Of a stretch of 53,014 nucleotides of DNA, positions 3,601-51,537 are shown in pieces. Each line of letters opens with the position of its first letter. Position 1 is the stretch's first letter. A program made the position numbers and the translations under genes. The stretch is from the NCBI GenBank assembly GCA_964601015.1, contig CAZRLY010000004.1:1-53014 (forward strand), read 5' to 3'. The notes beneath the pieces were generated by a model that ran no database searches, was not told where the DNA came from, and was given only the letters and a program-made list of their open reading frames with translations. This stretch comes from an uncultured bacterium. GTDB lineage: Bacteria; Poribacteria; WGA-4E; DTYX01; CAZRLY01.

Positions 3601-4520
3601 TGTTATCGGAAAATGGCTCACTGTTGATTATTGATGGCGGGCACACAGGTGCCGCCTCTACGGGCATCTCCGCCCGGGGTGGAGCGTCAACTACCGGTTC
3701 TTCGTTCCAGAACAGTGGGCAAAATGGAACTGATTCGCAATCCGGCAGCCTTGCCTTAGGCGGCACGATGATGGTAACGGACACTGAAGAACGCCTTGAA
3801 GCAGTACAAGAAATTATTGAGCAGATTGATGTCTCCATACCACAAGTTGAGATTCAAGCATACATAGTCGAAGGAACCATAACTGACCAAGATAACTTAG
3901 GCATTGACTGGCGTGTAATAGCTGACCAAGGCGGGAGTGAACTAAACGCAAGTTTGCCGTTTGGCGGAGATTTTCCCGCGTTAAATTTGCAAATTGGCAA
4001 TCTGTCAGTGGACGATTTCATCGGTGTTCTAAAGATTCTCTCCGCTCACACCGATACAAAAGTATTATCCAGTCCCAAGATAATGACGATTGGAAATAGG
4101 CCGGCTACCTTCACAAGCGGTGACCAAATTCCCTATACGGAACTCTCTATAACTCAGGACACTGATACAATCGCCACAACAAGTTTTAAAGATACAGGCA
4201 TCATCTTACACGTTACCGCAATGGTGAAGAGGGATAATCGGGTAAGTTTAACGGTAAACACCGAAGTTAGCGATGTCGCCGGCTTCACTCCCGCAGGACA
4301 ACCGCGCATCTCACAGCGCAAAGCCACAACGCAGGTTCTGGTCAAAGATGGCGATACGGCTGTCATAGGCGGACTTATAATGGAACGTGCAGATGAAACA
4401 GTATCCAAAGTGCCGATTTTGGGTGACATTCCACTGTTAGGCAGGTTGTTCCGAACGACAAATAAGAAAAACGTGAAGAGTGAAGTAACGATATTTATTA
4501 CGCCAAGGATTGTTAAATGA
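696..4520 (+). CDS. pilQ: PilQ/GspD-family outer-membrane secretin with multiple N-terminal AMIN-like modules
   Basis: Signal-like N-terminus. Three clear and one degenerate ~100-aa modules end in motifs RATQFKYNPPIARVVFHL, SQYKREPPMTRIVFYL and RAVQYRKNPPVARVIFDI. Two secretin-N (NolW-like) domains follow, then a C-terminal secretin core (VLSSPKIMTIGNRPATFTSGDQIPY, VPILGDIPLLGRLFR, EVTIFITPRIV). Confidence 0.85.
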   Translation: MEGRTYPRRLYLVILCLCLWLGTWRLDNQNFVFCPPLCWAETTASTNLTSDSSSEQSGKSQANTPAKENKLTAITVDKISDEQVTVKLSTLLSPRYGSILIPPAKDKNIWYFAINIIEAKLEVLPLSSSDSPQIFEKPLAHSQDEDRGSSLLKRIRATQFKYNPPIARVVFHLTAPLTPNITVIEDGLLVVFQKAKEGQSKPAIQKDLPPPENTKNISKLTAVNVDISDEYISIAFVVGHNPTYKSGLLPDKEKSRFYFYLNLQNTQSFVAGGKLFKQEIKDNNLTRVMVSQYKREPPMTRIVFYLNKFVKPQISFRAREQTKFVSTAKAELRQKPGNADTDISLKTTPALMGTKRKIVSELVVKFPRAEGKMAGGQKDESAKEQESKGTTTPSPPDSYPKRAASKLTEIKIDDKTLNHITIQLILNGIPDYRTVLMPVDRTKTVGAVTSYFYINFLNTTVERDKIFKKDISVKPLKSVRAVQYRKNPPVARVIFDISDAIKPDIEEKGYQLIVKFPKTERERVPVKTVAQTKTQDTQQDANTETLPFSPSDGGGQKHPLPEPPVTVDETPPRPDDMNATRSGVGGQRPNTNAQKPDSTSVQSESEEQSDSARSEAETPSSFSPTKKQLATITNITAEVLPEETALNIDIEGEIKLLQATYVVRNEAEEQSGGSEKLASPLRETVFSLKLENTITKTLQQINLNEGVIRNVILSPSEGDEKNMEVLVRLSEKVPHSVNSTDVSSQSIVQQRDEATIRRRLVVKFENPPLERLVSLKFDKENLSTVMLILSQQYGANIIAGSDVTGQVSIHATKVPLKEALLQILQAEGYTYIQEPGGFLRVLKDEGNEKAVTTQEPKLRRRVIELKYALATELEESLQKIFLGEKSNIVAEKRTNSLIVTDTEDSLAELEEIIAQLDKEASSVSTERTLSAKEGNSETQDKEAKPPLIKRILRLSYISPDEASAYVQPLLSENGSLLIIDGGHTGAASTGISARGGASTTGSSFQNSGQNGTDSQSGSLALGGTMMVTDTEERLEAVQEIIEQIDVSIPQVEIQAYIVEGTITDQDNLGIDWRVIADQGGSELNASLPFGGDFPALNLQIGNLSVDDFIGVLKILSAHTDTKVLSSPKIMTIGNRPATFTSGDQIPYTELSITQDTDTIATTSFKDTGIILHVTAMVKRDNRVSLTVNTEVSDVAGFTPAGQPRISQRKATTQVLVKDGDTAVIGGLIMERADETVSKVPILGDIPLLGRLFRTTNKKNVKSEVTIFITPRIVK

Positions 4521-7378: not shown

Positions 7379-8334
7379 ATATTATCTTTATGAAAAGCTT
7401 GCTCCTTATTCTACTTATCACTTTCATATCAACATCGCTTTGTTATTCCGCAGATTTTGACAGCCATTCCTCAACATTCAGAGGCTCGTTTACTTTCTCC
7501 GGCTTCGCCGCAGGGGTAGGTACGCGCGCTATGGGCATGAACGGGGCGTTTGTGGCCGTATCCGATGATTCCACCGCTCCGTTTTGGAATACATCAGGAC
7601 TTGCCGTCATCGGCTACAAAGAGTTATCTACGATGTATACGGATTTGTACGGATTAGGGCTGATAAGGACAAACGCAGTGGGTATCTCATTTCCCGATAT
7701 AGGTAGTGGTGCCACCGCTGTAAATTGGATACAATTGCGATACGATTTGGAATCATGGCGCGAACAAGCGTTTATCGGTAGTTACGCCAAGAGGATGACC
7801 AGTTTTTCCGCTTTCGGACTAAATGTAAAACACTTCAGGCAATCATCGAACATTGTCACCACAGAGGGTAACACTACCAACGCCAGAGGTTGGGGGCTTG
7901 ATGCAGGGCTTATCGTCAGATTGGGAAAACGCGGGCGATTTGGAATAACCGTACAGGATGCGTACAGCATCATCAATCTTTCATCAGGAGAAAAAGACAG
8001 GATGCCCATAAATTATCGCTCCGGGTTTGCCTACTATCCCCTTTCACGATTGGTAGGTGCAGTTGACGTAATAGGCGAAGAACACATCCCAATAAAATCC
8101 GTTCACGTCGGAGGGGAATACTGGATAGCAAAAAACGATTTAGTTCCGCCGATAAACGAGAAGAACCTCGCCATTCGCGGCGGCGTAGCCAAAGAATTTA
8201 TCGGCAAACAACGAATGACTTATGCCGGTGGCATAAGCATACGCGTCAGTTCATGGCAATTCGACTACGCTTACCTTGCCGATAACGATGGATTAGGAGA
8301 TACACATAGATTTTCGACCTCAGTGAGATTTTAA
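7375..8334 (+). CDS. PorV/PorQ-family-like outer-membrane beta-barrel protein
   Basis: ATGA overlap with the upstream stop. Signal peptide (LLILLITFISTSLCYSA). Signature GTRAMGMNGAFVAVSDDSTAPFWNTSGLA resembles the PorV/PorQ (UPF0164-like) N-terminal motif. Alternating beta-strand pattern and a C-terminal aromatic residue (SVRF). Confidence 0.6.
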   Translation: MNIIFMKSLLLILLITFISTSLCYSADFDSHSSTFRGSFTFSGFAAGVGTRAMGMNGAFVAVSDDSTAPFWNTSGLAVIGYKELSTMYTDLYGLGLIRTNAVGISFPDIGSGATAVNWIQLRYDLESWREQAFIGSYAKRMTSFSAFGLNVKHFRQSSNIVTTEGNTTNARGWGLDAGLIVRLGKRGRFGITVQDAYSIINLSSGEKDRMPINYRSGFAYYPLSRLVGAVDVIGEEHIPIKSVHVGGEYWIAKNDLVPPINEKNLAIRGGVAKEFIGKQRMTYAGGISIRVSSWQFDYAYLADNDGLGDTHRFSTSVRF

Positions 8335-8341
8335 GTTAATT

Positions 8342-8430
8342 GGCGGGTAGGGGGAAAACTAACATGACAAACGACAGTGAATAGTGAAGAAAAATGCTCT
8401 GCACCATTGGTTTTCTCCCCCATACCCGCC
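8342..8430. repeat. Long imperfect hairpin (G-arm GGCGGGTAGGGGGAAAAC / C-arm GTTTTCTCCCCCATACCCGCC), followed by a T6 run at 8441-8446
   Basis: The arms at 8342-8359 and 8410-8430 are reverse complements apart from two 1-nt bulges. The loop is about 50 nt. Lies between the PorV-like gene and gspF. Confidence 0.75.
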
Positions 8431-8475
8431 CTACGATGATTTTTTCAGCAGATACTAATTTAAGGAAGTTTCATC

Positions 8476-9552
8476 ATGAAGAATTCGACTCGCCCCTTTA
8501 GGCGTAAAAAAAAGATAACCACAAACGACATCATATTCTTCAACCGTCAATTAGCGTCAATGATTAAGATGGAGATGCCGGTGGTAGACAGTTTAGCGGC
8601 AATAGCTAAGGAAACACAGAATAAAGAGTTTAAAACTACTATAGAGATGGTAAAAAGCGATATAGAAATGGGCAGCACCATTTCTGAAGCGTTTGCCAAA
8701 TTTCCCAACGTTTTCCCTGAGTTATATGTAAGCATGATAAGGGCGGGAGAAGAGAGCGGTGATTTGCCTACGATATTAGACGAATTATCCAAATACTCAG
8801 AATCAATGGCGATGTTGGAAAGGAATGTCAAGACAGCCTTGATTTATCCAGCTATGATAATGGGGATTACCTGCATAATGTTAATTTTGTTGATAATTAT
8901 TGTAATTCCCATGTTTGCTAAACTCTATGCGGAAGCGGGTGCCAGTCTCCCCGCTTTGACGCTGATAGTATTGGATATAAGTGCATCATCAAAGCGTTAT
9001 TTCCCGATTATCGTCGCGCTTATTGTTTGTATGATATTACTCTGGCGGCTTCTTTGTCGCAACGAAAAAATACGCGCCGCAGTGGACAACTTCAAACTTT
9101 CCATACCCATCTATGGAAAATTGTTAAGGTATGCGGCATTATGGCGTTTTTCGCGTACGCTGGGAGCGCTGCTCAACGCCGGAGTGCCAATGCTTAACTC
9201 GCTATCTTTGGTAAGCGCAACCAGCGGCAACAAACGCATATCTCAGGCGGTTGATAGGATAAAACAACAGGTAAACAAGGGTGAAGATTTTGGCAAGGAG
9301 TGCGAAGCAACGGGCGTTTTTCCTACTACGATGACGTATATGATTGCGATGGGTACTGCTACGGGCAAGCTAAATGAAGCGCTCATAGGGCTGGCGGATT
9401 TTTTTGACCTACAGGTAAATACAACCTGTAGACGTATCTCGGTGGCGATTGAACCGGTGCTGTCGGTAATTGTAGGCATTTTCATCGGGTTTATTATTCT
9501 CAGCCTGTATCTCCCCATATTCAGTTTAGCAGTAAAAATAGGGGGAGGATAA
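8476..9552 (+). CDS. gspF: Type II secretion / type IV pilus platform protein (GspF/PilC family)
   Basis: AAGGAAG Shine-Dalgarno 8 nt upstream. Two T2SSF-type halves (FNRQLASMIKMEMPVVDSL...ELYVSMIRAGEESGDL and FSRTLGALLNAGVPMLNSL). Three predicted TM segments. Confidence 0.85.
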   Translation: MKNSTRPFRRKKKITTNDIIFFNRQLASMIKMEMPVVDSLAAIAKETQNKEFKTTIEMVKSDIEMGSTISEAFAKFPNVFPELYVSMIRAGEESGDLPTILDELSKYSESMAMLERNVKTALIYPAMIMGITCIMLILLIIIVIPMFAKLYAEAGASLPALTLIVLDISASSKRYFPIIVALIVCMILLWRLLCRNEKIRAAVDNFKLSIPIYGKLLRYAALWRFSRTLGALLNAGVPMLNSLSLVSATSGNKRISQAVDRIKQQVNKGEDFGKECEATGVFPTTMTYMIAMGTATGKLNEALIGLADFFDLQVNTTCRRISVAIEPVLSVIVGIFIGFIILSLYLPIFSLAVKIGGG

Positions 9553-9585
9553 GACAAATTGCCCCTTTCAGAAGGGGAGGAAAGT

Positions 9586-11154
9586 ATGTCTGAAGCGAAG
9601 AAACTAAACGAAACTAACTATCAAAATATCGAACTGACTGACGAGGGGATTATATTCAAGCGGCGCGGTTTTCTTCGCAGCATTCGTTCGGCTGTCGCAT
9701 ATAGCGATGTTGAAACCGTCATGCTAAATGAGAAAGATAAACGGCTTGCTATTCTCAAAAAGGATGGGGAGTTATTATCTATCAAAAAAGGGCTTATTGC
9801 CCGTTGCAGGCGGATGACGGATGAATTACATAAAATAATTTCCGAGAAAGTAGAAAATGCAAAGGCAAAGTTAATGTGGCAGAGCATTCCGCTTCAATTT
9901 GATGTATTAAATCAGCAGATTAACGAACTTGTGGTTGAGGGAGACAAGATGAACGTATGTGATTTAGCCGAACTGCTCCTGATTCAATCCGTATGCCATG
10001 GTGCCAGCGACATTCACATTGAACCGCATCAATCCCCTTCTCATCGTGATGGGGATAACAATGCCAGTCTGTGTCAACCCACCTCCCTTGTGAGAGGGGG
10101 ATTAAGAGTACGCTACCGGATAGACGGTTTCTTTCGTGACATCGCTTATATTCCAGGACACATCAAAAACAGATTAATCTCGCGAATAAAGGTTATCTCA
10201 AACCTTATCATCTACAAACACAACATTCCACAGGAGGGGAGCATTCGTTTAACGGTGGATGGATTGAGCGTGGATTTCAGGGTATCCATCATCCCCACTA
10301 TTATGGGCGAAAAGATAGTCATCAGAGCTTTTGATATTTTGGGTGCCTCTCGGAAGGCGGGAAACGAGATTGGCTCATCCGGGCAAAAGGCGGAAGAATT
10401 GCGTCCTCTATTTACTTCTGAAGGGAAGAACGAAGCGGTAGTTGATGTCTTATTTTTAGAATCCCTTGGCTTTACCGATGATGTGCTAAAGGGCTTTGAA
10501 TCGTTGATACTTCAAAATCAAGGGACGATTATTCTGACCGGCCCTTCTGGTAGCGGCAAGACAACAACTCTCTACTCAGCTTTGCGTCGGATACATCAGG
10601 TTAGAGGCGATAGCGTAAGCATCGTTTCCATAGAAGACCCGGTCGAATACAACCTCGAAGTGGCCAACCAGATTCAGGTGGATACACATAACGGATTGAC
10701 CTTCGCAAAAACCTTAGCTTCTGTGTTACGTCAGGACCCGGAGGTTATAATGGTGGGGGAGATACGCGACCCGGAGACTGCTGAAATAGCGATTCAAGCG
10801 GGGTTGACAGGGCATTTAGTGCTAACAACTGTCCACAGCGGAACAGCAGCGGGTGTATTTACGAGATTGCTTGACATGGGTTTGGAACCGTTTTTGGTAG
10901 CATCGTCGGTCAGAGGTATAGTAGCGCAACGTCTTGTGCGCCGTAAGACGATGACAAACTACAAGGGACGTACAGCAATCGCTGAACTATTGAGCGTCAC
11001 AGATGACATCAGGGAACTTATCATGAAGAGAAGCACTACCGGTGTTATTGAAGAAAAAGCACGCGAGTTGGGAATGCAAACCCTGAAAGAAAACGGACAC
11101 CAAAAAGTAGAAAATGGCATTACGACAGAGGAAGAACTTATTAGAGTTCTGTAA
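9586..11154 (+). CDS. gspE: GspE/PilB-family secretion ATPase with atypical features: non-canonical N-terminus, two internal insertions, and no tetracysteine motif
   Basis: GGGGAGG SD 5 nt before ATG 9586 (the ORF itself opens at TTG 9559). Motifs present: ASDIHIEP, RYRIDG, Walker A GPSGSGKTTT, Asp box SIEDPVEY, Walker B DPEVIMVGEIRD, His box GHLVLTTVHS. Confidence 0.85.
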   Translation: MSEAKKLNETNYQNIELTDEGIIFKRRGFLRSIRSAVAYSDVETVMLNEKDKRLAILKKDGELLSIKKGLIARCRRMTDELHKIISEKVENAKAKLMWQSIPLQFDVLNQQINELVVEGDKMNVCDLAELLLIQSVCHGASDIHIEPHQSPSHRDGDNNASLCQPTSLVRGGLRVRYRIDGFFRDIAYIPGHIKNRLISRIKVISNLIIYKHNIPQEGSIRLTVDGLSVDFRVSIIPTIMGEKIVIRAFDILGASRKAGNEIGSSGQKAEELRPLFTSEGKNEAVVDVLFLESLGFTDDVLKGFESLILQNQGTIILTGPSGSGKTTTLYSALRRIHQVRGDSVSIVSIEDPVEYNLEVANQIQVDTHNGLTFAKTLASVLRQDPEVIMVGEIRDPETAEIAIQAGLTGHLVLTTVHSGTAAGVFTRLLDMGLEPFLVASSVRGIVAQRLVRRKTMTNYKGRTAIAELLSVTDDIRELIMKRSTTGVIEEKARELGMQTLKENGHQKVENGITTEEELIRVL

Positions 11155-20300: not shown

Positions 20301-23300
20301 TCCGCAGACGGACTCTACTGCATAACTGTATCCGCAGAAGACCGACTGGGCAATCAGCAAACACACTCATTCAACTTCAATTATGCGGCTTCTTCACCGT
20401 TGCTCATCTCAACGACACCAGAACAAAATGAGTGGACAAAAGGGCCCGTTACGGAAATACAAGCCGTATTCAGGACGCAAACGCAGGGTGATATTGGCGT
20501 TTCAAACATCACACTCATTCGTCAACCGTTTGACAAAGATACTGCCATAGTCGTAGTGGATTCAGAGGACGCTGCCATCGAAAAACTAAACGCAAATGAG
20601 TACCGGTTGGGGTACGTCCTCCTGGGGCTTTTAGAGGATGGATATTATCAGATAAAAATTGACCTTAGTTACGATGAAAGCGCAAAAGCAAACTACGAGA
20701 GCGTTTTTTACTACGACGCATCCCCCCCGTACATCAACAATCTCTGTCTTGGGCGGGTGTACACCGTCGCCCAAGACAAAAACACATTCCCCGCAGATGG
20801 AAGCGCCACAAACACACCCCTGAAGGAAGTGTCGGTGACTTTTGCTGACAACGTTGGCGTTGACGCACAAAAGGTCAATCTCAGTCTGATTGGGCCGAGA
20901 GGCGAGATAGATGCGAGCCAGGTTACGGAAGGGCAAACACCCGCCCCTACGAGAAATACAATTTCGTTACAATTTCCTATCCTCTCCGCAAACGGCAGCG
21001 CAGATGGTGAATACAGACTGGTAGTATCGTCTATCGCCGACACGCTTGGCAACACAGCAGCAACACCAGAGGAGATAACCTTCATATATGATACAACCCC
21101 TCCCAGCATCGTATCACTTACTCCATCGCCGGATATATCCGTAACATCGCCGATTGACAGTGTGATAGTTACGCTCACAGATAATTTGAACCCGATGGGC
21201 GAAACCGTCAAAGGTAGTGGGGTAGATACAACAACATCCTGGGTAAGACTCATTGGTATTAGCGGCGAGCCAATACTGGCATCGTCAAACATAAATCAAG
21301 AAGCAGACGAATACGTTTTAACTCTTTCTTTCGCAGCATTAGCCGGCGATGGAAGCGCAGACGGGACTTATGCAATTGAAGTATATTCGCAGGATAGAGT
21401 GGGAAACACATCCCAAATCACAAAGTTTAACTTTAACTATACGACAGAAGGACCAATTTTAGCATCGGTGAACCCTCCGGATAAATCAGGCTTGAACGTG
21501 CCGCTCAATCAGGTCAAAGTGCAGTTTGCGCCCAATAAGGGCAGAGAACTTGATTTAGACGCGTCGCATATTACCATAAATGGCCCCAATGGCATTGTGT
21601 CAGGGAACACAGTTAGAAGCGAGGTATCCCCGGAAGATACGCTGTTATACATATTTGATGAACCTGTTGGCTACGATGGGCAGTATACTGTGGATATAAC
21701 AGCAGTGGATAAAGAGGGAGCGCAAGCACACTATAGCACGTCTTTTTACTGTGATACCCAGCCCCCGCAAATCGCTCGCGATGCCAAAGGGAAACTTATG
21801 ATAATACCCTCTCCCGGTTCTATGGTAAATGGTGCCCTGACGGAAATCCGCGCAAAATTGACTGATGCCGGAATGGGAATTGACTTGAATAATTCCATCA
21901 TCCAGTTAACCGGTCAAGCTGGCTCAATATTAGCCCCAGACTTAAGTCTGGGGGGCGAATTGACCAATAACGGAGTGGATGAGGTAATATTCACACTTTC
22001 CAATCCATTGTCGCCTGAGAAAGGAACCAACGGCTTATATACAGTCAATGTTATCCCCGTTGATAAACTCGGCAACGCCGCTCCAACAATAACGCAATTC
22101 ACCTACGATACAATAGCCCCCACACTTGTATCCACGTCTCCAGAAGTAGGCGCAGTCATCACAGAACCGATAGATAGTATCGAAGTTGTGCTGACAGACA
22201 GCGCAGGAAGCGGACTAAACGTTGCCAATACGCAGATAACCGTTACAATTGACGGTGATACCATCCTTGATGGTAAGCAAATATACGATGGCAATAATAC
22301 CTTTTTATGGTACTTCAATGAGGCTTTGTCAGTTGACCAAACAGACGCGCTTTCCCTGACGGTTACAATATCCACCGAAGATAACCTTGGCAATGCGAGA
22401 ATAATCACTTGCGATTTTAACTATACCACAGTAGCGCCAGTGCTCCTATCAGTATCTCCAGAAGAAAATTCTAAACTCAACACTCCAATTAAGGAAATCA
22501 GGGCGGTTCTGAAGGACAGAAGCCATACGGGCATTAAATTCGGTGGTGCCTCCTACATCATGCTCTCAAAAACGCCGTTTTCGGGCACTGAGGTTCTAAT
22601 CGCAGGAACTCTTGACGATAACGGAAATGATACATTAATATTCACCCCGGACGACAATCTATCCACAGATGGGCAATCAGATGGTATGTACAACCTTATC
22701 ATTGTTGCGGCAGACAACGCTGAACATGTAGCACTATACAAAAAAAGTTTCTTTTACGATACCCAACCGCCCACAGCTCAAGTTATTTCCCCTGAGGTTG
22801 ACGTTACTTCCGATTCTATATCCCGAATCAGCGCCCGTTTAACCGATGAAGGAGTCGGAATTGACCTGAATTCTTCTGAAATAACCTTAGCGTCGCCGAG
22901 CGGTTCGATAACCGGGCAGAAAGTCCACGATGGGGTAGATACTATCAGCCTGCTTTTCCCACAACTTCCAATGGATGGTACGGCAGACGGCATCTACACA
23001 ATTACCGTCATACCCGTTGACCTTTCCTCAAATTCCCCTGCCGTACCTTTGAGGAAATCCTTTACCTACGATACCACTCCGCCAAGCATTGTGTCGGTAA
23101 AGAGTGGAGGGCAAGCCCTTCACTCTTTACCTGAGATTCAGATAATGGCACCGATAAGCTCTCTCTCCGTAACTCTTGAGGACGTTAATGGAATTGCCCT
23201 ATCTTCTTCTTCGCTCTCATTGCGCTCCCCTAACGGCAACATAGAAGGGGGCGAAAGTCAAAAGTTGGAGGTATCTCAGCAAAGGGCAACGCTGCAGCTT

Positions 23301-26300
23301 AACTTTGAGACACCGCTGATTTTGCAGGGAATGTATTTGCTTACAGTTGACGCTTATGATAAGTTATACAATTTTGTCAAGATAGAATACGAATTGGAAT
23401 ATAGCATCAACGCGCCGACTTTGGCGTCAATGAACCCCCCTCACAAAAGTGTTACGAATACGCCTATCAGCAGTATCACAGTCCTCTTAGACGACAAGGG
23501 CGGAGAGGGCATTGATACTTCAGTATCTACAATCTCCGTACTTGGCCCAAACGCAGAGGGAACACAGCACATCCCTGCGGAACTACCACTTACCCCAGGA
23601 CTATTGGAGTGGGATTTCACCTTCCCGTTGGCGACGGACGGGACGCAGGACGGAAAATATACCGTCTCAATAGTTGCCGTCGATAAAAAGACGCGCGGCG
23701 TCCTTACATTAACGGACGACAACAGCCGTTACTTCATCTATGATACGCAACCTCCAGAGGTACTTTCTATCTTCGGTGAAACTGTAGAAATTAAAGGTGA
23801 ATTGAGGGATGGTTTGGTTATAAGTGACCGATTGTCGTACATCTCAGCCCACCTTAACGAAGGCGATGAATTTATCTTGAGCGAAGGTACGTCCCCGCTC
23901 AAGACAGAGACAACAGCGGGAATTGACCTGATGGCTTCTGACATCAAACTCACCGGCCCCTCAGGCGAGATAACAGCGCAAAAGAGTAACGATGGAAAAG
24001 AGACACTACGTCTCCAATTTCCCGCCCTCACGGACGACGGATTGTATACCGTTGAGGTTACGCCCGTGGATAAAGTTGGGAATACCACAGCATATCCAAC
24101 AAAAGTTACATACTTGTTGGATACCACGCCTCCTCAGTTAGTATCCACAGTGCCAGCGGATGGCGTAATAGCACCATCCGGACTAACAAGCGTAAAAGCA
24201 CTTGTGAGTGACGAAGGAAGCGGAGTTGATGGTAATAATTCGTCCATAAAACTGTTTGACGCTAATGGCGAATTGGTCGAAGGTGAAACTGTTTTATCAG
24301 GGGAATCTGAGTTGACCTATTATGTTTCCAGTTCGCCTTTATCCCAGGGCGAACATACCATCGAAGTTTATGTTGCTGATAAGAGTAAAAATCTATTAAA
24401 CGTCCCCCAAGCCAACTGCTCCACATATATCTCTAAGTTCTCCGTATCCACGCAAATATCACAATCGGTTATAGTAACGCCAACTGATAATGCAGCATTG
24501 CGAGAACCAATAGACGAAGTTACAGCAGTTTTCGCTGATGACGATGGTACTACAGTCTCTATTGATGTCGAAAATAGCTCTATCAACGTTGTAAAGGTGA
24601 CTGGTGAGCAATTACCAATCACCCTCTCTGGAGAACTGACTTATGATGTTAAATACAACAAGCTCGTATTTACATTTGATAGGCAGTTTGCAACCGATGG
24701 CAGCGATGACGGATACTACGAAATATTCATTTCCGTCGCTTCAACCGGTTTTGTCTTGGGCGACGGTATATACCCGCCCAAGACAGGGATTAAGGAGATA
24801 CAATATCAACCTACATCTTTCCGTTACGATACAACCGCTCCGTCCATCAATTTGGTTTATCCCGCAGAAGGGAGCATTGTCGTCAGTCAGATTGCACAAA
24901 TATCCGCCCTGTTAGAGGATGTTGCTATTGACTTGGGCAACTCCAGTATAAAACTAAAAGGCCCTTCCGGTTTTGTCATCGGTAATCAGGTAGATAACGG
25001 GGTTGATACGTTGATATATCGCCTATTTTCGCCACTTGCCATCAACGGAAGCGATGATGGCACATATACGGTACAGGTGGAGCCAAAGGATTTATTGGGC
25101 AACGGTTATCCAGTGCCTAAAGAGTTCAATTTCCTATACGATACGCAGCCGCCCACACTGATTAAAAGCGAGCCAGCAGCAAATACTACGGTACTCGTCC
25201 CCCTTGAAAAAATCTCGCTCACATTCTCAGACTTAACAGGTGTGGATGCGACGAAATCGAATATATCGCTCACCGGCCCTGGTGGACTGGTGCCTGGTAG
25301 CTTGGTGCCTGGTGATTGGTCAGCAATCAGCAATCACCAATACCCCATTACCTTTGTTTTCTCTGAGCCGTTGGACGCTAACAGCGAAGAGGATGACGGA
25401 GATTATACGGTCAATTTGCAACTAATAGACAAGGCAGGAAATAAACAGGAGACGAGTTTTACTTTTACCTATACGACAATATCGCCTGGTATCACAACGT
25501 TAGTCCCTAAGGCAAATACCTATGTAAATTCGCTCAAGGATATTACCGTATTGTTGTATGACAATAGCGGTACTGGGATTGATGTGACTCGCTCTACCAT
25601 AGGACTTGAAGGGCCAAATGGCGACGTTCCCGGTCAATTGACTACAGAGGGCATTGATACGCTCATTTTTACGCCGGACAACAACACAGGGTTGTCCCTA
25701 CGAGATGATGGAGAATATGTTATAACCATCGTAGCTTACGACAACGCTCATCACAGTGCACACTATCAGCGTATTTTTTACTATGATACACAACCGCCTG
25801 ACGTTGAAAGCCTTTCTCCCGCTAACGGGAGTGCTCTGAACTCCCCCTTCTCCGTTTCAGCGACTCTCAGCGACAACCTTTCGGGTGTAGATATTACTCT
25901 CTCCACCATCGAACTTAAAGGGCCGGGGGGAGAGTTAATTGGCGAACAAACGAGCGATGGTAAAAATACCCTTGTGTGCTCTTTCGCCCCATTCGCAACT
26001 GATGGCAGTTTTGTCTTGAGCGACGGTATACACCCGCTCAAGACAGAGACAGATGATGGCGTTTACACTATCAGCATTTTACCCGTTGACATCGCAGGGA
26101 ATAAACCCGCAGAACCGATAAGTGCAAGTTTCCACTACGATACTCAACCGCCGGAGGTTTCATCCACTTACCCATTAGCAGATAGTACCATAAGGGAAGT
26201 AATAAGCAGCGTATCTGTTGCCCTCACGGACGACGGCTCTGGATTAGATTTGGGGAATTCCACGATAAGTTTGACCGGGCCGAACGGTGCTGTTTTGGGC

Positions 26301-29300
26301 GAGTTATCGGACGATGGCATCAGCAAAGTATTCTTCAATTTTGAAACGCTACGTCATGACGGAAGCGACGACGGCGAATATAAAATCGGAGTAGTAGCGG
26401 TAGACAAGGCAGGAAATTCCGGTAGCGTCGTCCTCCGTCCCGACAAAGAAACCATAAGTTTTTTCTACTACTCTGACGCGCCGGAGTTGGTATCCACTAC
26501 GCCCAAAGCGGGAGAAGGATTGCAAACGCCTATCTATGAGGTATCCGCCACCCTAAAGGACGTAAGTGGAACGGGGTTGGATTTATCGCAAACCACCTTG
26601 AGATTGATTGGAGAAGACGGTATTCCCGTTAGCGGGGGACAAAGTGACAACGCCGTTCCAGGACAGATACAACACACTGCCACGGTTACATTCACTTTGC
26701 ATCATCCTTTTGCCACAGATGGCTCACAGGACGGAGAATATGTACTCCACATTGACGCTAAAGATAAACGTGGGAAGCAAGGGAACTATAAAGTACACTT
26801 CTTCTACGATACAATGGCACCTTCCGTTCTTTCCGTATTCCCCGAAGATAACGCTATTATAAACTCACCGTTCAGTGTCGTTGAGGGTAAGCTAACAGAT
26901 GAACACGCCCAAGTTGACCTATTTAGCTCTACCATAAGGCTAATTGGTCCAAACGGTGAGGTTAAAGGCATTGGCAAGAACGACGGAGAGGATACGATAA
27001 AACTTTCTTTTTCGCTTCTTTTGACCGATGGCAGCGATGATGGAGAATATACGCTCAGTATAATGCCAGTTGACTTGCTGGGTAATACCCTTGCAACTCC
27101 CCTCACATATACATTCCTATACGATACTATGCCACCGGTTGTCGTAGAGACGATACCAGCAAAGGACGAAATCATCGCAGGCAGTGCCGTATCGGGATTC
27201 AACATACGTGTGACGCTGGACGACGGCGATGGCTCCGGCGTAGACGCTGACTGGCGGGACGGAGAGCCGCTGCTACGAATAACCGACGACGAAGGAAGGG
27301 AAATCAGCGGCGAACAATATTTTGTCTCTCACGACGGTATACACCCGTTCGAGACAGAGACAACCGCAGTCCCCCATCTGAAAGGGACATTAATGGATTT
27401 AGTCCTTCCGCTTTCCGATTTATCCCTTCCGCCTTCCATAACAAGCAGTCGCTATTATATCCATGTTGTATGTGCAGATATAGCGGGAAATAAAGGTGAA
27501 GAGGTACGCATTCCATTCTCCTTTGACTACCAACCGCCGGTGCTGGTAAAAATGACGCCTGAAGCCGGCAAAATGGTAAATGGCATCATTGACGAAATAA
27601 ATATAGAAATTTCTGACGAAGGAAGCGGGGTAAACGCAGAAAATACCCTGATAACAGTCCTTTCCCCCGACGGCAATGAAATAATTGGAGAATACCCCAA
27701 CACCCCAACACCCCAGAACCCCATTACCTTCTCCTTCCGTCCAACTGTACCACTTAGCGTCAACGGTTGGTATACCATAACCATTGAAGCACAAGACTTT
27801 GCAAACAACAAGATAAACATTACCCCAAGTTTTTTCTACGACAGCATCCCGCCCCAAATTGACGAAGTTGTGGCGTTGCCTTCCTCTACGCTTATCACAG
27901 AAGGCGGAGTGATTGGAGGCACTATAAATAGCATCACAGCGGGCATTTCTGACGTAGGGAATGCACCCCTCACAGGTTCATCTGGTATTGATGTTAAAAA
28001 TACTAAGGTAGTTTTGCGGGAAAAGCTGGACGAAGAATCCATTGACGAGTGGAATACTGTACCTGGTGCCCTGAACAATAGCGACACCGCTACTATTTGG
28101 AACGTAAGTTCGACAGACGGACTGACGCAATCCGGGTTGTACAAAATAGAAATTTCAGTATTTGACCAGGCAGGAAACGCATCCAACAGGACTATTAATT
28201 TCCGTTATTCTGACACCCCATCGCAGATGCCGGAGCTCGTAGTCCTTACCCCCGCGCATTCTGCTCGTTTGAATAAACCGATAAGCGTTGTGACCGCGCA
28301 ACTTAAAGACAACAGCGGTAGTGGCATTGACTTTAGCAGTTCAACTATTGAAGTGAGTGGGGCTGGCATATCCCAAGCGGATACCATCTCCAATGACCAA
28401 ATTGATATTGTGTTGTGGCATTTTGCTTCGCCGTTAGCGACTGATGGCAGCGATGACGGCATATATCTGGTCAATATCAATGCGGTGGACAATGCAGGAA
28501 ATAGCAAAGTATTCCCCACCATAAAATTCACTTATGATACGCAAGCGCCTCAAGTGCAAGGCATGTATACACCCAAGACAGCAGACGCAGAAATAAGTGG
28601 TGTTGGGGGTATTGCTAAGAGTATCTCTGAGGTTTCAGCCATCTTAGCCGATGCAGGAGGTACGGGGATAGATGTGGAAAAATCAAACATTACCCTTGAG
28701 GACTCCGATGGGAAATTGATAGACGGAGAACACAACAACGGCGTGTTTGTCTCTCACGAGGGTATACACCCGCTCAAGACAGAGACAGTAGAGGAGGGAA
28801 GTTCCACCTTACTACTCCAGTATCGTTTCTCTCCTCTTAGAGCAGACGGCACCGATGACGGAATATATACAATCAAAATACTCTCCGCTGATGTATTGGG
28901 CAACACAACAGCTTTGCAATACCAGTTTAGATACGATACAAGCGCGCCCACAATAAAGAACGCTACCCCCAAACCTGCTGCCATAGTTGTCGCTTCCATC
29001 GGTAGCGTCCGTGTAGAACTTACCGATGGCGTTGGCGTTGACGTTGAAGAATCAACCATAACCGTAACCGGCCCGGAGGGGGCGGAAGTGGTGTTAGGGG
29101 CCAATAAAGAGTTTTTCTCGTCGCCAACACAAAATGGAGAAGACGCACTCATTTATGTATTTGCCCACCCTCTGAAAATGGACGGCTCCCATGATGGCAT
29201 CTATACTGTATCCGTATATGCAGTTGACCTATTGGGGAACTTCTTCAGATATAACTACGATTTCACCTATACTGCTACGGCACCTGCTTTAGTATCCATA

Positions 29301-32300
29301 ACCCCCAGGGATGAAGAGGAAATAAATGAACCCATAGATGAAATAGTTGCCATCCTCAACGATAGGAGCGGGAAGGGCATTGATGTGAACCGCACCAGTT
29401 TGAAGTTGTTTTCATCAGTTGGAGAGATTGAAGGTGTTGGCGGCATCTCTCCGGATGGAAGTTCTGTCTTTCTGCGACTTGATAGGAGTTTAGCCACAGA
29501 TGGCACGGATGAGGGGTTATATACCATTAAATTGGAAGCCGTTGATAATTCCGGCGCATCCGTCACTTACATCTCAACCTTCCTATACGATACTCGCCCG
29601 CCAGAAGTCATCAGTACAGTCCCCGATGAATCCTCCTATCTCGCTAAATCCCCCCTGCCCCCCTTTACCAAAGGGGGGGGGATTTCAGTTGTTAGCGCCC
29701 GTTTTAGAGACGATGGCGTGGGAATCAATCTACGGGATTCTGAGATAAATCTTGTGCAAGCTCCTACGGTACTCGTAGGAGAGAAAACCGATAACGGCGC
29801 GGATAGAATCAGCTTTAACTTCAGTCCTTTCGCAACTGATGGCAGCGACGACGGAGAGTATACCATACGGATTATCCCAGTTGATAGATTGGGAAATAAA
29901 CCGATTGTGCCCATAGAGAAAAAGTTTTTCTACGATACGACTCCACCGAACGTGGTAGAAGTAACTCCTATGGGGGATTCCACGCTTCTTTCGCCCATCA
30001 GCAGAGTTACTGTTATGCTTGAGGATACAGCCCCAGACTCAAGTCTGGGGGTAGGAGTAGATTTTACTTTGTCTTCGCTTTCACTCTCCGGACCAAATGG
30101 CAAAGTGAACGGAACAGCGGGTAAAGATAATGAAAACTCGCTCTGGCTGGATTTCCCTCCCTTGAAGTCAGATGGCAGCGCAGACGGGACTTATACGCTT
30201 GAAGTATTGCCCGTTGATATGCTCGGCAACGCACCAGTAAAGCCGATGGAATACCAGTTTACATACAATACTAAGGCGCCAATGCTCCTGAACATTTCCC
30301 CCGCAAACAACGCCCTGCTTAATACGCCCACAAGTCAGATATCCGCTGTCGTGGGCAAGGGTTTGGATTTGAACCGCTGTCGAATTTCCGTTGAGGGAGA
30401 GGGAGTTTCCCCATCTGATTTTTACTCCACGTTAGGGACGGATACGTTGGTTTACTCCTTTGCTGAAAGGTTTGCCACCGACGGTAGTGACGACGGAGAA
30501 TATATTGTAACAATTGTAGCGATGGGCAAGCCCCCTGTTTCTGCTACCTATACCACGCGTTTTACTTATGATACACAACCACCACTCGTAGAAGTAGGAA
30601 GTTTCTCGCTTTCTTACCTTTCGGATGGAGCAACAAAAACATTCCCAAACGAAATTAGCGTACAGTTAGCTGATGCTCACGCTGGAGTTGATTTTGTCTT
30701 GGGCGACGGTATACACCCGCCCAAGACAGAGATTGTGGAACGCTCAAGTTTGAAGTTATTTGGTCCGACAGGCGAGATTGCCGGAAGGAATACCAATAAC
30801 GGCGTGGATACTATCAAACTTGATTTTAGTAGCGATGTCCTTACAAATTTAAACGACGGAGTTTACACAATACAGGTAAAACCGGTTGATAAATTGGGCA
30901 ATAAAACTGCAACCCCCTACTCGTTTAGATTCCGATTGGATACGACACCACCCACGGTGGTTGGTGTTTGTCTTGAGCGAAGGTATACACCCGCTCAAGA
31001 CAGAGACAGTAGAGTAGTTAGTGGTGGATTGGTGACTGGTGACCAATCGCCAATTGTTATCACATCGCCGTTTGAACGGATTGAAGTATCCTTAAACGAC
31101 GAGGGCGTTGGTGTCGATGTTGAAAGTCTTAAGCTTCGTTTGCTCGGACCGGATGGTGTAATGGACGGAGATGTTCGGGAAGTAACACCCAAAGATGCGG
31201 AGGACGTTACGCTACAGTGGAACCTGACGACTCCATTGAAGGGCGATGGGAACGATGATGGAGAATATGCGATTGAGGTTGTAGCGGCGGATGCACTGGG
31301 CAATTCCGTCTTAACTACCATTGATATTGTGTATCTTACCACCGTCCCGGAGCTAATTTCCGTCAACGGGTATGTTTATCAGAATACGGAAAAACCTCTA
31401 TTTGCTACGCGTATCCCGCTTCAAAATGTTACTGTTATGTTCAAGGATAGAAGCGGAACGGGGATAGATTTTGATAAAAGCCGCTTAGAACTCCAGGGGC
31501 CGGGGGTTTCCGAGAGTGATAGAATTGATAACAACGGCACAAACGAGCTATCCTGGGTTTTCGCACATCCGCTCGCAACCGATGGCAGCGACGACGGCTT
31601 ATATATTTTGAACGTTACGGTGGCGGATAAATCGCCAAACTCAATAAACTATGCGCCTATCTCATTCCTCTGCGATACCACAGCGCCCACTGTGGAGCAT
31701 TGGAGCATTGGAGCATTGGAGCAATGGAGCAAAGAACTCCAGCGCCCAGACACTTTCATCATCGCATCGCCGTTTGATGAAATTGAGGTCATATTAGCGG
31801 ACAATGGCGTGGGAGTTGATGTGGAAAACTCTACGATAAAGTTGGTCGGGCCGAATGGGCCGGTTAAGGGAACGATGACAAACGACGGAGTGGATACCTT
31901 GCGATTGCGATTTGAACAGCGAAAGGATAACGGCTCAGATGACGGCGAATATGTCATACTGGTAAATCCAAAGGACAAACTGGGCAACGGGGCAACCATA
32001 GCGCTATCCGAAACCTTCCTCTACGATACCCAGCCGCCTAAATTATCGGATACCCACCCTGTGGAAGGGGAGACTATCACTACCCCGCTAAAGGAAATAT
32101 CTGTTGTCCTGATAGACAACCTATCCGGCGTTGATGTGGCGAATACCAGCATAAGCGTTACTGGGCCAAATGGGCCAGTGCTGGGCGACATTAGCTTTTT
32201 TGTCTTGAGCGAAGGTATACACCCGCTCAAGACAGAGACAGGCGAAGATGGGGACAGAGAACCACCCCTACAGTTCATTTTCAAAGAGGAATTAGCCTCC

Positions 32301-35300
32301 GACGGAACAGACGACGGCACATATACCATCATCGTCGTCCCTGTGGATAATGCAGGTAATGTGGCAGAGGGGATGAGGGGGATTGAGTTTACCTATACCA
32401 CAACATCGCCCCTGCTAATTTCGACTATACCAAAAGCTAATTCTAACTTGAATTCTGCTTTAACATACATCTCCGCTACTATAAAAGACCAAAGTGGTTC
32501 GGGGCTGGATTTAGATAATTCACGTATTTTGTTATCCGGTCAGAAGGGCATGGTAAGTGGTTCTTCCCAAAACGATGGAGATAACACGCTCCTATTCTAT
32601 CTGGACGCGCCGCTTTCAAACGATGGCAGCGATGACGGAGAATACGAAATGAGTATACTGGCGACGGACAAGACAGGGGCAAACGCTAACTTCGTTCGCA
32701 GGTTTTTATACGATACCACCGCGCCGGAGGTAAAATTGTTAATCCCGCCGGATACCAGCGCGTTCTCCACCCCGATATCCAAAATATCCGCTACGCTTGA
32801 AGATACAGGTTCGGGCGTGGACGTTGCAAATTCTACCATAGGACTTAAAGGGCCAAAGGGGGAAATAGTTGGGCAGAAAACCAACGATGGTGTCAGTGTT
32901 ATCTCTCTGGAATTTGGTAGTGGGACGGATGCGATGGATGATGGAATATACCAAATTCTCATTCTGCCGGTGGATAACGCTGGAAACTCCCCGCCGCAAA
33001 AGATTACCTCAAGTTTTATCTGCGATACCCGTCCGCCTGAAGTAGTCAAAGCTCACGCTGGTGCCGGCTCCATTGTCATATCCTTCCCGTTCAGTGGTGA
33101 AGGGACTCCGTCCCGTTCTGTGGAGGTGGCGATAGATAAAATAGAAGTTACATTGAGAGATGAACTTAGTGGCGTTGATGTGGATAACTCTACCTTGAGT
33201 TTAATTGGACCGCGTGGGAAGGTAGACGGAATTACAAAAATAAAAGTGGAAAGTGGAAATGGAAAAGGAGGAAGTACTATGATGGCGCCTTACTTTCCCC
33301 TTTCCACTTTCACCTTTGTCTTTGCCCCTCTCCCTCTTGACGGCACAGCAAACGGAGAATATAGAATAGAAGTAACCGCCGTGGATATGGCATCAAATGT
33401 GCTCGCTGACAGTTTCGTTGGTTCTTTCATCTACCAGCCTACTGCGCCGGAACTTCTGAGTACAACCCCATCAGATGGCTCCAAACTTTCGATGCCCATA
33501 AACACTATATCCGCCGTTCTGATTGACCGTAAGGGCAGTGCGCCTACCCAAAGCGGCATCAGCCTGCAAGGGACGCAAATGAGAGTGTTTTCACCGGGTG
33601 GGGACGAGTTGTCAGGCAAGTTGACAAAGGAAACAGTCGACGAAGGGAAAGCCGAACTAACCTTGCACTTGGAAAAACTTTTCGCTACCGATGGCTCAGA
33701 GGATGGGAGATATGGCATTTATATCACCACTGTGGATAACAGAGGCAATAGCGGTGAATACTCCCTCCAATTTACCTATGATACTACCGCGCCAAAAGTG
33801 GTGGGGACTGTCCCTGCCGACGACGCTATCTTAAATACGCCGCTATCAAATGTATCTGCGTCACTATCGGACGCATACGCTGGAATTGACTTAGTGGCCA
33901 GTAGTATCAGCCTTTACAAAGGAAAGTTGGGACAGAACCCAAATGAACCCGCCAGCGGGCCCATTTTATCAGTAGATGGAATTCAGAAAAATGACGGGGA
34001 TTCCATGATAAAATTGGATTTTCCCACGTTGTCAACCAACGGCAGTGATGACGGTATTTACATCATCGACATCATGCCCGTTGACATGCTAAAAAATACC
34101 CTCGTCTCTCCTGAACGGTATACGTTCATTTACGATACCACAGCGCCGCAACTCATCAAAACTGAGCCAGCGTCCGCAGTTGTCGTCACAGGCATCAGGT
34201 TATTCAAAGTCAGCGCATCCTTCCACGATGATGGCGGAATGGATGTTACAAGCTCGGAGATTATGCTCACCGGTCCAAATGGAAATACCATAACAGGGGA
34301 AATCTCCACGCCACCCGAAGTCTTGGCGAATTCGGCTACGGGCGACGTTACGATAACATTTTACTTTGATACATCCCTGAGCGTTGAGGGAGATGACGAT
34401 GGGGAATACCGAATCAATATCAAAGCCGTAGATATGGCGAACAACACTAAGGAATATACATCCACGTTCATTTACGAGAGCGGTTCAATTGACGCACCGA
34501 AGATAGAATACATCAGCGTCCAACCGTTGGCTTTCTCGCCAAACGCTGACGGCATACATGATACCACACAGATATCCTATCAACTCGACAGAGCGTCATC
34601 GGTGACAGCAGAAATTTTGGCTCCCCAGTCAGGGACTGGGGATACCCGCGAGATTGTAAGGTTGCTTGCAAATAAACAGATTCAGCCGCCTGGACGACAT
34701 ACGCTAACGTGGAATGGCGTTGGTTCCGTAGCGGCGCAGCTCCGTCCCGCCACTCAGTCCACGCCCATTTTCGCGCCTGACGGAGAATATGTTGTGCGGA
34801 TTGTAGCAACTGATATGACAAGCAACAAGACACAAACCCGTAAAACCCATGTCATCCTCGATACGCAACCGCCTGCTGTAGGCGTTCCTACCCTCTCCAG
34901 CAACCCGATTACGCCAAATGGAGACGGACTTGCGGATACCACTACCTTGAGTTTTTCCATATCCAATTCCAACCCGACGGACGGACTGAAGATAGATTTC
35001 TACGAATCCGATGGAGTTGCTAAATTGCCGTCCTCTGTGGTGATTCCGACATTTGTGGGCGATGGCATGTATTCGGTAACGTGGGACGGAACGGATGGAA
35101 TAAGTAACGTACCGCTACCGGATGGAGAGTACAGATTCGTAATCAAGGCGTTTGATGAGGCGGGAAACTCTCGCACACAATCCGGCGTCCTCTTACTTGA
35201 CAGTTCTCCTCCACAGATAAACATATTTTTTTCCGATATTAAAGTGGAATTGCGACGGGAACTTGAAGAAGAATTCAGGAGTTTATCCACCACATCAACG

Positions 35301-37965: not shown

Positions 37966-38245
37966 TAAGGTATTGGAGTATTGGGGGTTTGGGGTATTGG
38001 GGTTAAAGAAGGTATTGGGGGAGTGGGGCATTGGGGTAATGGGGAAAAAGAAGGTAATGGGGTTTTGGGGCATTGGGGGGTTGGGGGAAAGACTTATGAT
38101 AACCAAAGTTTTTCCCCCATTACCCCATTACTCCATCACCCTAATGCCTGCTTTTAATGCCCCATCACCCCATTCCTCCAATACCCCATTACCTTTTTCA
38201 CTCACCCCATTACCCCATTGCTCCATCACCCCAACACCTTACCAC
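37966..38245. repeat. ~280-nt imperfect inverted repeat: a G-rich arm of degenerate GGGGYATT/GGGGTAAT octamers facing a complementary C-rich arm
   Basis: The G-arm (37966-38090) and the reverse complement of the C-arm (38108-38245) share starts (GTAAGGTRTTGG), internal blocks (GAAAAAGAAGGTAATGGGG vs GAAAAAGGTAATGGGG; one-base A indel) and ends (GGGGGAAA/TTTCCCCC). More than 15 G4+ runs sit on one arm. Confidence 0.8.
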
Positions 38246-38343
38246 TATTGTGACATTCGTGGTTTCAGGAATGGGAAATTACAAACCTAACTTGGTAGAA
38301 GTCGTCCGGCTTTCCGGTCCGTCTGGTTTAGGAAGGATTGAAA

Positions 38344-51139: not shown

Positions 51140-51214
51140 TGACCGTAACGGGATTTGAACCCGTGCTACAGGCTCGAAAGGCCTGTGTCCTAGGCCAGGC
51201 TAGACGATACGGCC
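51140..51214 (-). tRNA. tRNA-Glu (anticodon UUC)
   Basis: Reverse complement: GGCCGTATCGTCTAGCCTGGCCTAGGACACAGGCCTTTCGAGCCTGTAGCACGGGTTCAAATCCCGTTACGGTCA. Acceptor stem GGCCGTA/TACGGTC, anticodon loop CTTTCGA, T-loop GGTTCAAATCC. No CCA is encoded. Confidence 0.9.
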
Positions 51215-51224
51215 AAAACGTGAA

Positions 51225-51297
51225 TGAGCCGTACAGGAATCGAACCTGTGACCATCGGCTTAAAAGGCCGGTGCTCTACCGGCTGAGCTAACGGCTC
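51225..51297 (-). tRNA. tRNA-Lys (anticodon UUU)
   Basis: Reverse complement: GAGCCGTTAGCTCAGCCGGTAGAGCACCGGCCTTTTAAGCCGATGGTCACAGGTTCGATTCCTGTACGGCTCA. Acceptor stem GAGCCGT/ACGGCTC, anticodon loop CTTTTAA, T-loop GGTTCGATTCC. Confidence 0.9.
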
Positions 51298-51343: not shown

Positions 51344-51537
51344 CAAAAAAATGCCATAAAATAGATTTTTTTGCGAGGAATAAAGTCATCGCACCCAACG
51401 GATATTCCCTGCTATCCTTCATCAACCCTTCTAATGTTTTTGTTTTTCTATCCAACTGGCGGCTTGCGGCAAGCCCCCCTTTCCCTTAAATGGATTTGAC
51501 CCCTAGCCAAAATCAATAACTAACAATAGCACTATCA

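Follow-up and report, generated by a model that had tools for sequence, protein, structure and literature searches.

The stretch of DNA considered here, hereafter the window, comprises 53,014 nt of an uncultured bacterium (contig CAZRLY010000004.1, GenBank assembly GCA_964601015.1) and contains a giant open reading frame (ORF) at 11355-37868 on the plus strand. Its product of 8,837 aa carries ~40 Ig-like repeats of the CopC/Big_3_3/Big_5 type between aa ~2100 and 8500, Big_13 domains in addition, and a CHU_C/FlgD_ig-like C-terminus. The repeat unit is ~105-125 aa long, closes with the motif ...YDTxxPxV and occurs ~40 times between aa 2100 and 8500. This adhesin-like gene houses all copies of a short palindromic element of 42 nt, i.e. 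14 codons. On balance, we favour the view that the element is a very small non-autonomous mobile DNA, comparable to repetitive extragenic palindromes (REPs), Rickettsia palindromic elements (RPEs) or "nano-MITEs" (MITE, miniature inverted-repeat transposable element), and that it has been repeatedly copied into the giant gene. The copies and one decayed remnant are the following (subfamilies and reading frames are described below):

20739-20780, minus strand: element copy, subfamily A, inverted; read as NLCLGRVYTVAQDK; inter-domain linker right after YDASPPYIN
23871-23912, plus strand: element copy, subfamily B with diverged loop; frame 0, FILSEGTSPLKTET; loop preceding the GxGID motif
24750-24791, plus strand: element copy, subfamily A; frame 0, FVLGDGIYPPKTGI; loop ~25 aa ahead of the next domain boundary
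26010-26051, plus strand: element copy, subfamily B; frame 0, FVLSDGIHPLKTET; interrupts the conserved DGS-DDGxY motif
27321-27362, plus strand: element copy, variant C with two compensating 3'-arm changes; frame 0, FVSHDGIHPFETET
28746-28787, plus strand: element copy, variant C, uncompensated, 4 stem mismatches, -11 kcal/mol; frame 0, FVSHEGIHPLKTET
30693-30734, plus strand: element copy, subfamily A, equal to the consensus; frame 0, FVLGDGIHPPKTEI; sits between GVD and VxxS
30967-31008, plus strand: element copy, subfamily B; alternative frame, VCLERRYTPAQDRD; linker right after LDTTPPTVVG
32199-32240, plus strand: element copy, subfamily B; frame 0, FVLSEGIHPLKTET; same loop class as 27321 and 28746
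28565-28587, plus strand: decayed remnant of the element 3' half; linker right after YDTQAPQVQG

All nine positions, with the inverted copy listed as 20741 (the name kept here), had been reported in a sequence-only reading of the window, and a search allowing ≤10 substitutions recovers every one of them and nothing more in the 53-kb window. With ≤3 mismatches to the consensus, six copies are found, against 0 expected in 100 dinucleotide-preserving shuffles. The readable part of the genome amounts to ~67 kb, namely the window and ~13.5 kb of adjoining sequence from other assemblies (~8 kb beyond the window and ~5.5 kb upstream). When nhmmer --max was run with a profile of the nine copies, no further copy was detected in the window and the ~8 kb beyond it, nor later in the ~5.5 kb upstream. 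The half copy proposed at 28565 is real as well: the segment 28565-28587 aligns with element positions 17-41 if 4 nt are taken as deleted and 1 nt as inserted, and its local score of 31 exceeds the maximum of 25 over 1902 random windows of the gene. Another candidate remnant, at 28294, was judged to be a product of chance and of paralogy in the GID motif.

The unit had been given as 40 nt long. Two more bases belong to its 3' end, TT in the GGGCG/CGCCC subfamily and CA in all other copies, which makes the actual unit 42 nt. It starts with TTTG and ends with AGACA or AGATT (TGTCT... and AATCT... in the reverse complement). Measured on these 42-mers, pairwise identity between copies is 74-100% (mean 87%) instead of the 85-100% stated earlier. 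Three groups can be distinguished: subfamily A (GGGCG/CGCCC, 3' TT; copies 20741, 24750 and 30693), subfamily B (GAGCG/CGCTC, 3' CA; 23871, 26010, 30967 and 32199) and variant C (3' CA; 27321 and 28746), in which positions 8-11 of the 5' arm are changed from TGAG to CTCA. Copies 30967 and 32199, 1232 nt apart, are identical at 42/42 positions, yet they are read in different frames. Together with the decayed remnant, the three groups indicate successive waves of insertion of different ages. Some ordinary explanations could be dismissed. Irregular spacing of the copies (274-1947 nt) rules out a CRISPR array, an intrinsic terminator is ruled out by the missing U-run after the stem, and an assembly artefact by the agreement of several independent assemblies on the copies, none of which breaks the frame.

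There are several reasons to regard the copies as insertions. Firstly, their 100-nt flanks share 0.54 pairwise identity, which is the level of random 100-mers of the gene (0.541 +/- 0.034), while the cores reach 0.87. The flanks are thus unrelated, as the sequence-only reading had it; they do not align like the core and plain segmental duplication is excluded. Identity falls at the same two boundaries in 9/9 copies, as would be expected if the ends were defined by an enzyme. Secondly, when each insert with 70 residues on either side was compared with the giant protein itself by BLASTP, the paralogous repeats (30-40% identical) displayed clean gaps opposite the insert. Examples of such gaps lie at 26010, where the most conserved motif of the repeat is split between FATDGS and DDGxY, and at 30693, between GVD and VxxS. 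In a MAFFT alignment of 16 repeat units, each insert forms a private 14-column insertion. Thirdly, the empty site can be traced at the DNA level for two copies. For 26010, joining the two flanks gives a sequence that agrees at 24/30 positions with the paralogue at 28437, which has no insert; for 30693, the joined flanks agree with 31806, including 9+8 nt without mismatch on the two sides of the junction. It follows from these two sites that exactly 42 nt were added and that no target-site duplication was produced (with ≤1 nt of ambiguity).

Comparison with other organisms leads to the same picture. The exact giant protein has no record in protein databases and no close orthologue; its best homologue is 39% identical among 1.84 billion representative proteins and 35% in a set of 5.8 billion. 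We compared the inserts with the 150 best-scoring proteins from the 1.84 billion representatives, which are ≤~40% identical. All six possible insert peptides are absent from these homologues, even with ≤5 substitutions allowed, and homologous repeats are often gapped opposite the inserts, most clearly at 26010 and 30693. At 26010, gaps of 13-14 residues occur in 230/334 spanning homologue alignments. The central proposal of the sequence-only reading, an element that was inserted at the level of nucleic acid and is tolerated in loops of Ig-like repeats, is therefore supported: the insertions are private and exactly 14 codons long, two empty sites exist in DNA, and the same DNA is read in three modes (see below).

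Within the repeat unit, the inserts fall into five classes of position:

Class 1, right after the domain boundary: 20741, remnant 28565, 30967
Class 2, before or after the GxGID motif: 23871, 30693
Class 3, loop following GPxGxxxG: 27321, 28746, 32199
Class 4, within DGS-DDG: 26010
Class 5, ~25 aa ahead of the next boundary: 24750

The unit carrying copy 26010 was modelled by AlphaFold with the paralogues as alignment. It is predicted as a CopC-like beta-sandwich with mean pLDDT of 87, and Foldseek matches it to CopC structures with TM-scores of 0.62-0.77. The insert corresponds to residues 73-86 of the model and lies in its sole low-confidence loop, between strands 59-63 and 89-96. The inserts occupy surface loops and inter-domain linkers.

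All insert lengths are multiples of three, and the ORF stays open at every copy because 42 = 3 x 14 and no stop codon arises in the modes used. Seven of nine copies are read in frame 0 and give FVLxDGIHPxKTE(T/I). The earlier claim that the element is present in frame is right insofar as all copies keep the ORF open and seven share one frame, but 30967 is read in the second sense frame and 20741 is inverted. There are consequently three reading modes, which produce unrelated peptides from the same DNA. Among the seven copies in frame 0, every variable codon alters the residue except GAA/GAG, and only F1, G6, P9 and T12 are invariant. The three modes and the nonsynonymous nature of the differences show that the conserved entity is DNA (or RNA) and not a peptide module, and that the insert peptide is under no purifying selection.

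The reading mode matches the class of site perfectly. The three linker copies (with the remnant included, and in both orientations) are of the CLxRxYTxAQD type and the seven loop copies of the FVL type; a match as perfect as this has a chance of 1/120 when the remnant is counted and of 1/36 when it is not. It is best read as a tolerance filter. This association, along with the use of a single mode in 7/9 copies, might also suggest that the 14-residue segment is a module useful to the adhesin (a small beta-hairpin, a binding or cleavage motif) which was selected as a peptide and spread by recombination. We hold this to be very unlikely. The module would have to be encoded by DNA that yields unrelated peptides in three modes and in which nearly all nucleotide differences change the residue. 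Further, the flanks offer no homology that would drive the recombination, the insert is predicted to be disordered or of low confidence, and none of the 150 best homologues contains it.

The hairpin takes up 38 nt of the 42-nt unit and consists of a 13-bp stem, a 2-nt bulge, a 3-bp stem and a 4-nt loop. Six of nine copies fold at -21.7 to -24 kcal/mol (z of -5 to -7), and these intact hairpins rank among the strongest 42-nt windows of the giant gene. The other three (23871, 27321 and 28746) are degraded, with -11 to -15 kcal/mol. Under this structure, 93.8% of cells are paired; double-sided changes affect three pairs, a number that 18/500 shuffles also reach. Compensatory changes of the stem, as noticed earlier, do exist, but they reduce to two events. 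One is a G-C/A-T switch of pair 10/29, perfectly linked to the A/B subfamilies and to the TT/CA end. The other is the re-pairing at 8/31 and 11/28 in copy 27321, whose sister 28746 has the same changed 5' arm with four uncompensated mismatches. Because the compensatory changes come down to two lineage events, the covariation argument is weak; an explanation by only two duplication lineages, which the sequence-only reading had itself named as a refutation, essentially applies to the covariation, and the argument for insertion is untouched by it. In variant C, the new block CTCA equals the reverse complement of the TGAG that it replaces, and this is a signature of intrastrand template switching. 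Palindromic DNA can acquire compensatory changes in this way, without any selection acting on RNA. Paired columns vary less than the unpaired ones (10/32 versus 7/10, Fisher p = 0.06), and the evidence for selection of the hairpin is modest.

If the hairpins were nevertheless kept for their action in the 26-kb mRNA, they might serve as exonuclease barriers, as RNase III or RNase E sites, or as ribosome pauses that aid co-translational folding. Such a structure-selected RNA element would agree with the high stability of the hairpins (-22 to -24 kcal/mol, z of -5 to -7), with the three double-sided pairs reached by 18/500 shuffles and with the lower variability of paired columns. Also in keeping with it are the sense orientation of 8/9 copies (binomial p = 0.04) and a U.G wobble at pair 2/37, which pairs on the sense strand only. 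We still consider it quite unlikely. Three of nine stems are degraded and the hairpin of 28746 is wholly lost in the mRNA context; of the two events behind the covariation, one is perfectly linked to subfamily, and palindromic DNA can correct itself without RNA selection. The copies are irregularly spaced, with no fixed relation to domain boundaries, the insert is absent from homologous giant proteins, and there is no match in Rfam. An RNA function would, moreover, leave the exact length of 14 codons and the tracking of mode with site unexplained. Nothing specifically favours the role in pausing, processing or stability of RNA that had been suggested, given the degraded stems, the inverted copy and the missing positional regularity.

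Dispersed repeats in the same orientation could be of use to the host in yet another way. As recombination substrates, the 42-nt copies would let blocks of domains be deleted or duplicated and thereby vary the length of the adhesin. Seven of them form direct repeats that share one frame and are spaced by multiples of three, and exchange between 27321, 28746 and 32199, which share a loop class, would yield intact hybrid domains. Yet at least five independent assemblies are of equal length and show no sign of deletion variants. The identical, youngest copies 30967 and 32199 lie 1232 nt apart in different frames and exchange between them would result in a frameshift, and most pairs of copies reside at non-equivalent positions of the fold. 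We regard this as the least probable of the explanations discussed here.

The 42-nt element is not the only hairpin in the giant gene. A scan of folding energy in 42-nt windows revealed more in-frame hairpins, at least three of which are private insertions. Two belong to a second family, GCCCCAGACT(T/C)AAGTCTGGGGG, of 22 nt and ~-15.5 kcal/mol, with 0 copies expected by chance; the rest are single:

21933-21954, plus strand: second-family copy, GCCCCAGACTTAAGTCTGGGGG; in frame, APDLSLG; private 7-aa insertion in its repeat unit
30030-30051, plus strand: second-family copy, GCCCCAGACTCAAGTCTGGGGG; in frame, APDSSLG; private insertion in a different loop
29646-29685, plus strand: single 40-nt in-frame hairpin, AAATCCCCCC..GGGGGGATTT, C-run/G-run, -21.9 kcal/mol; encodes KSPLPPFTKGGGIS; private ~10-aa insertion
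23096-23131, plus strand: single perfect 16-bp hairpin, -26.5 kcal/mol; encodes VKSGGQALHSLP; linker after YDTTPPSIV; possible insertion
34622-34642: single, very stable in-frame hairpin, CCCCAGTC-AGG-GACTGGGG; resembles the second family; possible insertion

The second family has arms (GCCCCAGAC/GTCTGGGGC) that resemble, at 8/9 positions, an inside-out version of the arms (CGCCCAAGAC/GTCTTGGGCG) found in the 42-nt element; this may be a coincidence. Some other repeats were seen in the same region. A hairpin-forming pair at 24596-24623 and 25310-25339 (GGTGA(C/T)TGGT..CAATCACC), 714 nt apart inside the gene, probably represents paralogous parts of a duplicated double unit and not insertions. 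Between the stop of the giant gene (37868) and the next gene (38338), G-tract octamers (GGGGTATT/GGGGCATT...) followed by their complement (CCCCATTA/CCCCATCA...) extend over 37967-38250 and form a long imperfect inverted repeat of G4-like units. Runs of C-tract and GGAGCATT octamers are present also inside the giant gene, at 27683-27738 and 31694-31735, one of them 86% complementary to the intergenic run.

The additional private hairpins bring up the possibility that no transposase is involved. A hairpin might stall replication or repair, and the unit would then be copied ectopically within the gene by template switching or by microhomology-mediated templated insertion. In such a case the element would be confined to the gene, as one product of a general gain of palindromes in these loops. 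All copies are indeed located within 11.5 kb of one gene with none in ~40 kb around, at least three more private hairpin insertions (21933, 30030, 29646) are found in it, the TGAG to CTCA block of variant C bears the signature of intrastrand template switching, and no transposase is encoded nearby. On the other hand, templated insertions are usually variable in extent and have microhomology at junctions, whereas identical precise ends are observed in 9/9 copies and no microhomology is visible between the flanks and the ends of the element. One copy is inverted as well, and absence elsewhere says little when ~67 kb are readable and ordinary genes are intolerant of insertions. We consider copying inside the gene rather unlikely. 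A related idea, somewhat less likely still and put forward only tentatively, is that tiny in-frame palindromic insertions of several families (the 42-nt element, the 22-nt GCCCCAGACTYAAGTCTGGGGG family and the singles) have the giant gene as their specific habitat or even target. If this is true, then a dedicated or at least recurrent process at the DNA level remodels giant surface proteins in the loops and linkers of their Ig-like repeats, and it would represent an undescribed route of adhesin surface diversification, distinct from ordinary selfish repeats spread over the genome.

We return to the explanation that we favour, a non-autonomous palindromic element mobilized in trans. An enzyme encoded elsewhere would recognize the hairpin and move the unit, with precise ends and no target-site duplication, into unrelated targets. 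The most plausible candidate for such an enzyme would be a RAYT-like or IS200/IS605-like HUH/Y1 transposase that acts on single-stranded DNA. Purifying selection would then retain only tolerable insertions, i.e. those whose length is a multiple of three and which are free of stops in the modes used. The survivors would pile up in exposed loops and linkers of the long redundant array of ~40 Ig-like repeats. Which mode survives would be decided by the structural site: FVLxDGIHPxKTET in intradomain loops and CLxRxYTxAQD, in either orientation, in linkers. The element itself may well have no function for the host.

Several observations weigh against this explanation. There are no copies outside the giant gene in ~40 kb (26.5 kb of the rest of the window and ~13.5 kb of adjoining sequence), all known copies being intragenic and in a single gene; mobility beyond it is thus our extrapolation. 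If nine copies fell uniformly on the window and the 8 kb downstream, the chance of all being in the gene would be ~5e-4, but ordinary genes are intolerant and intergenic DNA is scarce. The claim of the sequence-only reading that the element occurs only inside the giant gene accordingly holds over the ~67 kb of readable genome and is not established genome-wide. Neither the window nor the ~13.5 kb of readable genome next to it contains a transposase or RAYT gene. The pattern of the element has no match in GTDB species representatives, a broad pattern fitting 9/9 copies has none in JGI metagenome contigs, and nothing meaningful was found in IMG/VR, plasmids and phages; these are weak negatives, as the organism (in the case of JGI, its own contigs) is evidently missing from all these collections. 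Two JGI matches to a second pattern, of loop and inner stem, were chance hits with no flanking palindrome. No presence/absence polymorphism is seen across at least five independent, essentially identical assemblies. The nine copies share no conserved target motif (their left flanks are TGTT, TGAA, CGGT, CAGT, ATAT, CGTG, TGAT, GGTG and CTTT) and have no GTAG/CGTC tag at the element end. The bias of 7/9 copies to one mode needs an added assumption, either selection of the peptide or a preference for target or strand. Finally, the unrelated hairpin insertions in the giant gene hint that a local DNA process that makes palindromes could contribute.

It is useful to compare the element with known systems. 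In-frame insertion of palindromes into coding genes has been described for RPEs in Rickettsia, and intragenic GTAG/CGTC REPs are known from Opitutus terrae and others (PMC3733652, PMC10969869). Like the present element, RPEs are palindromic repeats located in frame within coding genes, translated as an extra peptide and found at sites compatible with the protein fold, and their families are read as selfish DNA that survives where it is tolerated (Ogata et al. 2000, 2002, summarised in PMC10969869 and PMC3733652). The 14-codon insertions in loops and linkers conform to this pattern of in-frame palindromes at fold-compatible sites. In contrast, RPE-1 measures ~100-150 bp (45-50 aa) and resides in many unrelated housekeeping genes of an obligate intracellular alphaproteobacterium, while the element described here has 42 nt (14 aa), is read in three modes and is found in one giant repeat gene of an environmental bacterium; the likeness is one of behaviour.

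Intragenic GTAG/CGTC REPs (Opitutus terrae, and RPE-4/RPE-6 of R. conorii; Di Nocera et al. 2013, PMC3733652) are stem-loops of 20-40 bp in ORFs, encode short peptides and have G.T pairing in stems, all of which resembles our case. A short, stable and repeated stem-loop is what we find: a 38-nt hairpin in nine copies, six of them at -22 to -24 kcal/mol. These REPs are thought to be moved by Y1 (RAYT) transposases (PMC3733652). They differ, however, in carrying a tetranucleotide tag at one end and in being mostly intergenic and distributed genome-wide. The present copies are single and all intragenic. The stem-loop ends lack GTAG/CGTC; a CGTC is seen only internally, where the minus strand forms the bulge, and copies that have GAA or GAG at positions 14-16 lack even this internal GACG. 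The element is not a member of the tagged REP superfamilies.

Elements associated with palindromes and derived from IS200/IS605, including REPINs, have in common with the present one a unit defined by a hairpin, precise ends, no target-site duplication and a bias of strand or orientation (PMC3116915). They insert 3' of a conserved tetra- or pentanucleotide, though, and REPINs are inverted REP doublets, in contrast to the singlets observed here. No duplication and no common left-flank motif are apparent at our sites, which are only nine. MITEs with in-frame fusions (intragenic ERIC, Coxiella QMITE1, MITEs of Anabaena; PMC10969869) are likewise non-autonomous, lie occasionally in ORFs and add peptide segments. 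With a length of 70-300 bp, terminal inverted repeats and target-site duplications, they are unlike a single 42-nt hairpin that makes no duplication, and the present element does not have the hallmarks of a MITE.

A further parallel is offered by the cyanobacterial SDR or "nano-MITEs" of Elhai et al. 2008, which are reportedly palindromic units of tens of nucleotides that appear mobile and may lie inside genes. They are said to occur genome-wide, come from another taxon and have other sequences, and are reportedly not known for a 14-codon in-frame pattern.

As to the surroundings of the giant gene, it lies directly downstream of a cluster resembling type IV pilus/MSHA and type II secretion loci (window positions 696-11154 and the adjoining upstream contig 1-10000), with a MshE-type ATPase, PilM, PilN, PilO, a 1,249-aa secretin, a 953-aa Ig-like protein, T2SSF and T2SSE. 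The T2SSE secretion ATPase is ≤41% identical to any GTDB representative, and its matches are scattered across many phyla. A similar neighbourhood, with type II secretion genes upstream of giant genes, has been described in Omnitrophota (10.1101/2023.11.21.568195); in-frame hairpin inserts are not mentioned in papers on giant genes (10.1101/2023.11.21.568195). The host genome also has sigma-54 regulators, comes from environmental metagenomes and is not Rickettsia-like. The window sequence recurs, with 0-2 single-nucleotide differences, in JGI samples 3300009314, 3300009320, 3300009128 and 3300013120 and in one ENA assembly. Its positions 1-50 disagree almost wholly with the otherwise identical JGI contig Ga0117908_1000704 and are probably a chimeric or junk contig end of the source assembly. 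In an Rfam 15 scan of the whole window, two tRNAs alone reach the gathering score. Their genes lie on the minus strand at 51140-51297 and are adjoined by a 30-nt inverted repeat (51456-51485 and 51769-51798), whose arms are 90% complementary and 283 nt apart.

Taken together, in-frame colonization of genes by palindromes is known chiefly from Rickettsia and a small number of REP-rich genomes, and the present case extends it in several respects. At exactly 14 codons, the unit is near the lower end of the sizes so far reported for elements of this kind. Its host is a giant secretion-associated gene, whose ~40 paralogous Ig-like repeats serve as built-in controls of the empty site. The same DNA is read in three ways, with the mode set by the structural site. 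The gene thus offers a natural experiment in the tolerance of Ig-domain loops and linkers for different peptides. For annotation of giant genes, it should be kept in mind that such inserts may pass for domain features or assembly errors. Should the element turn out to be confined to this gene, this would suggest a new way in which surface proteins diversify.

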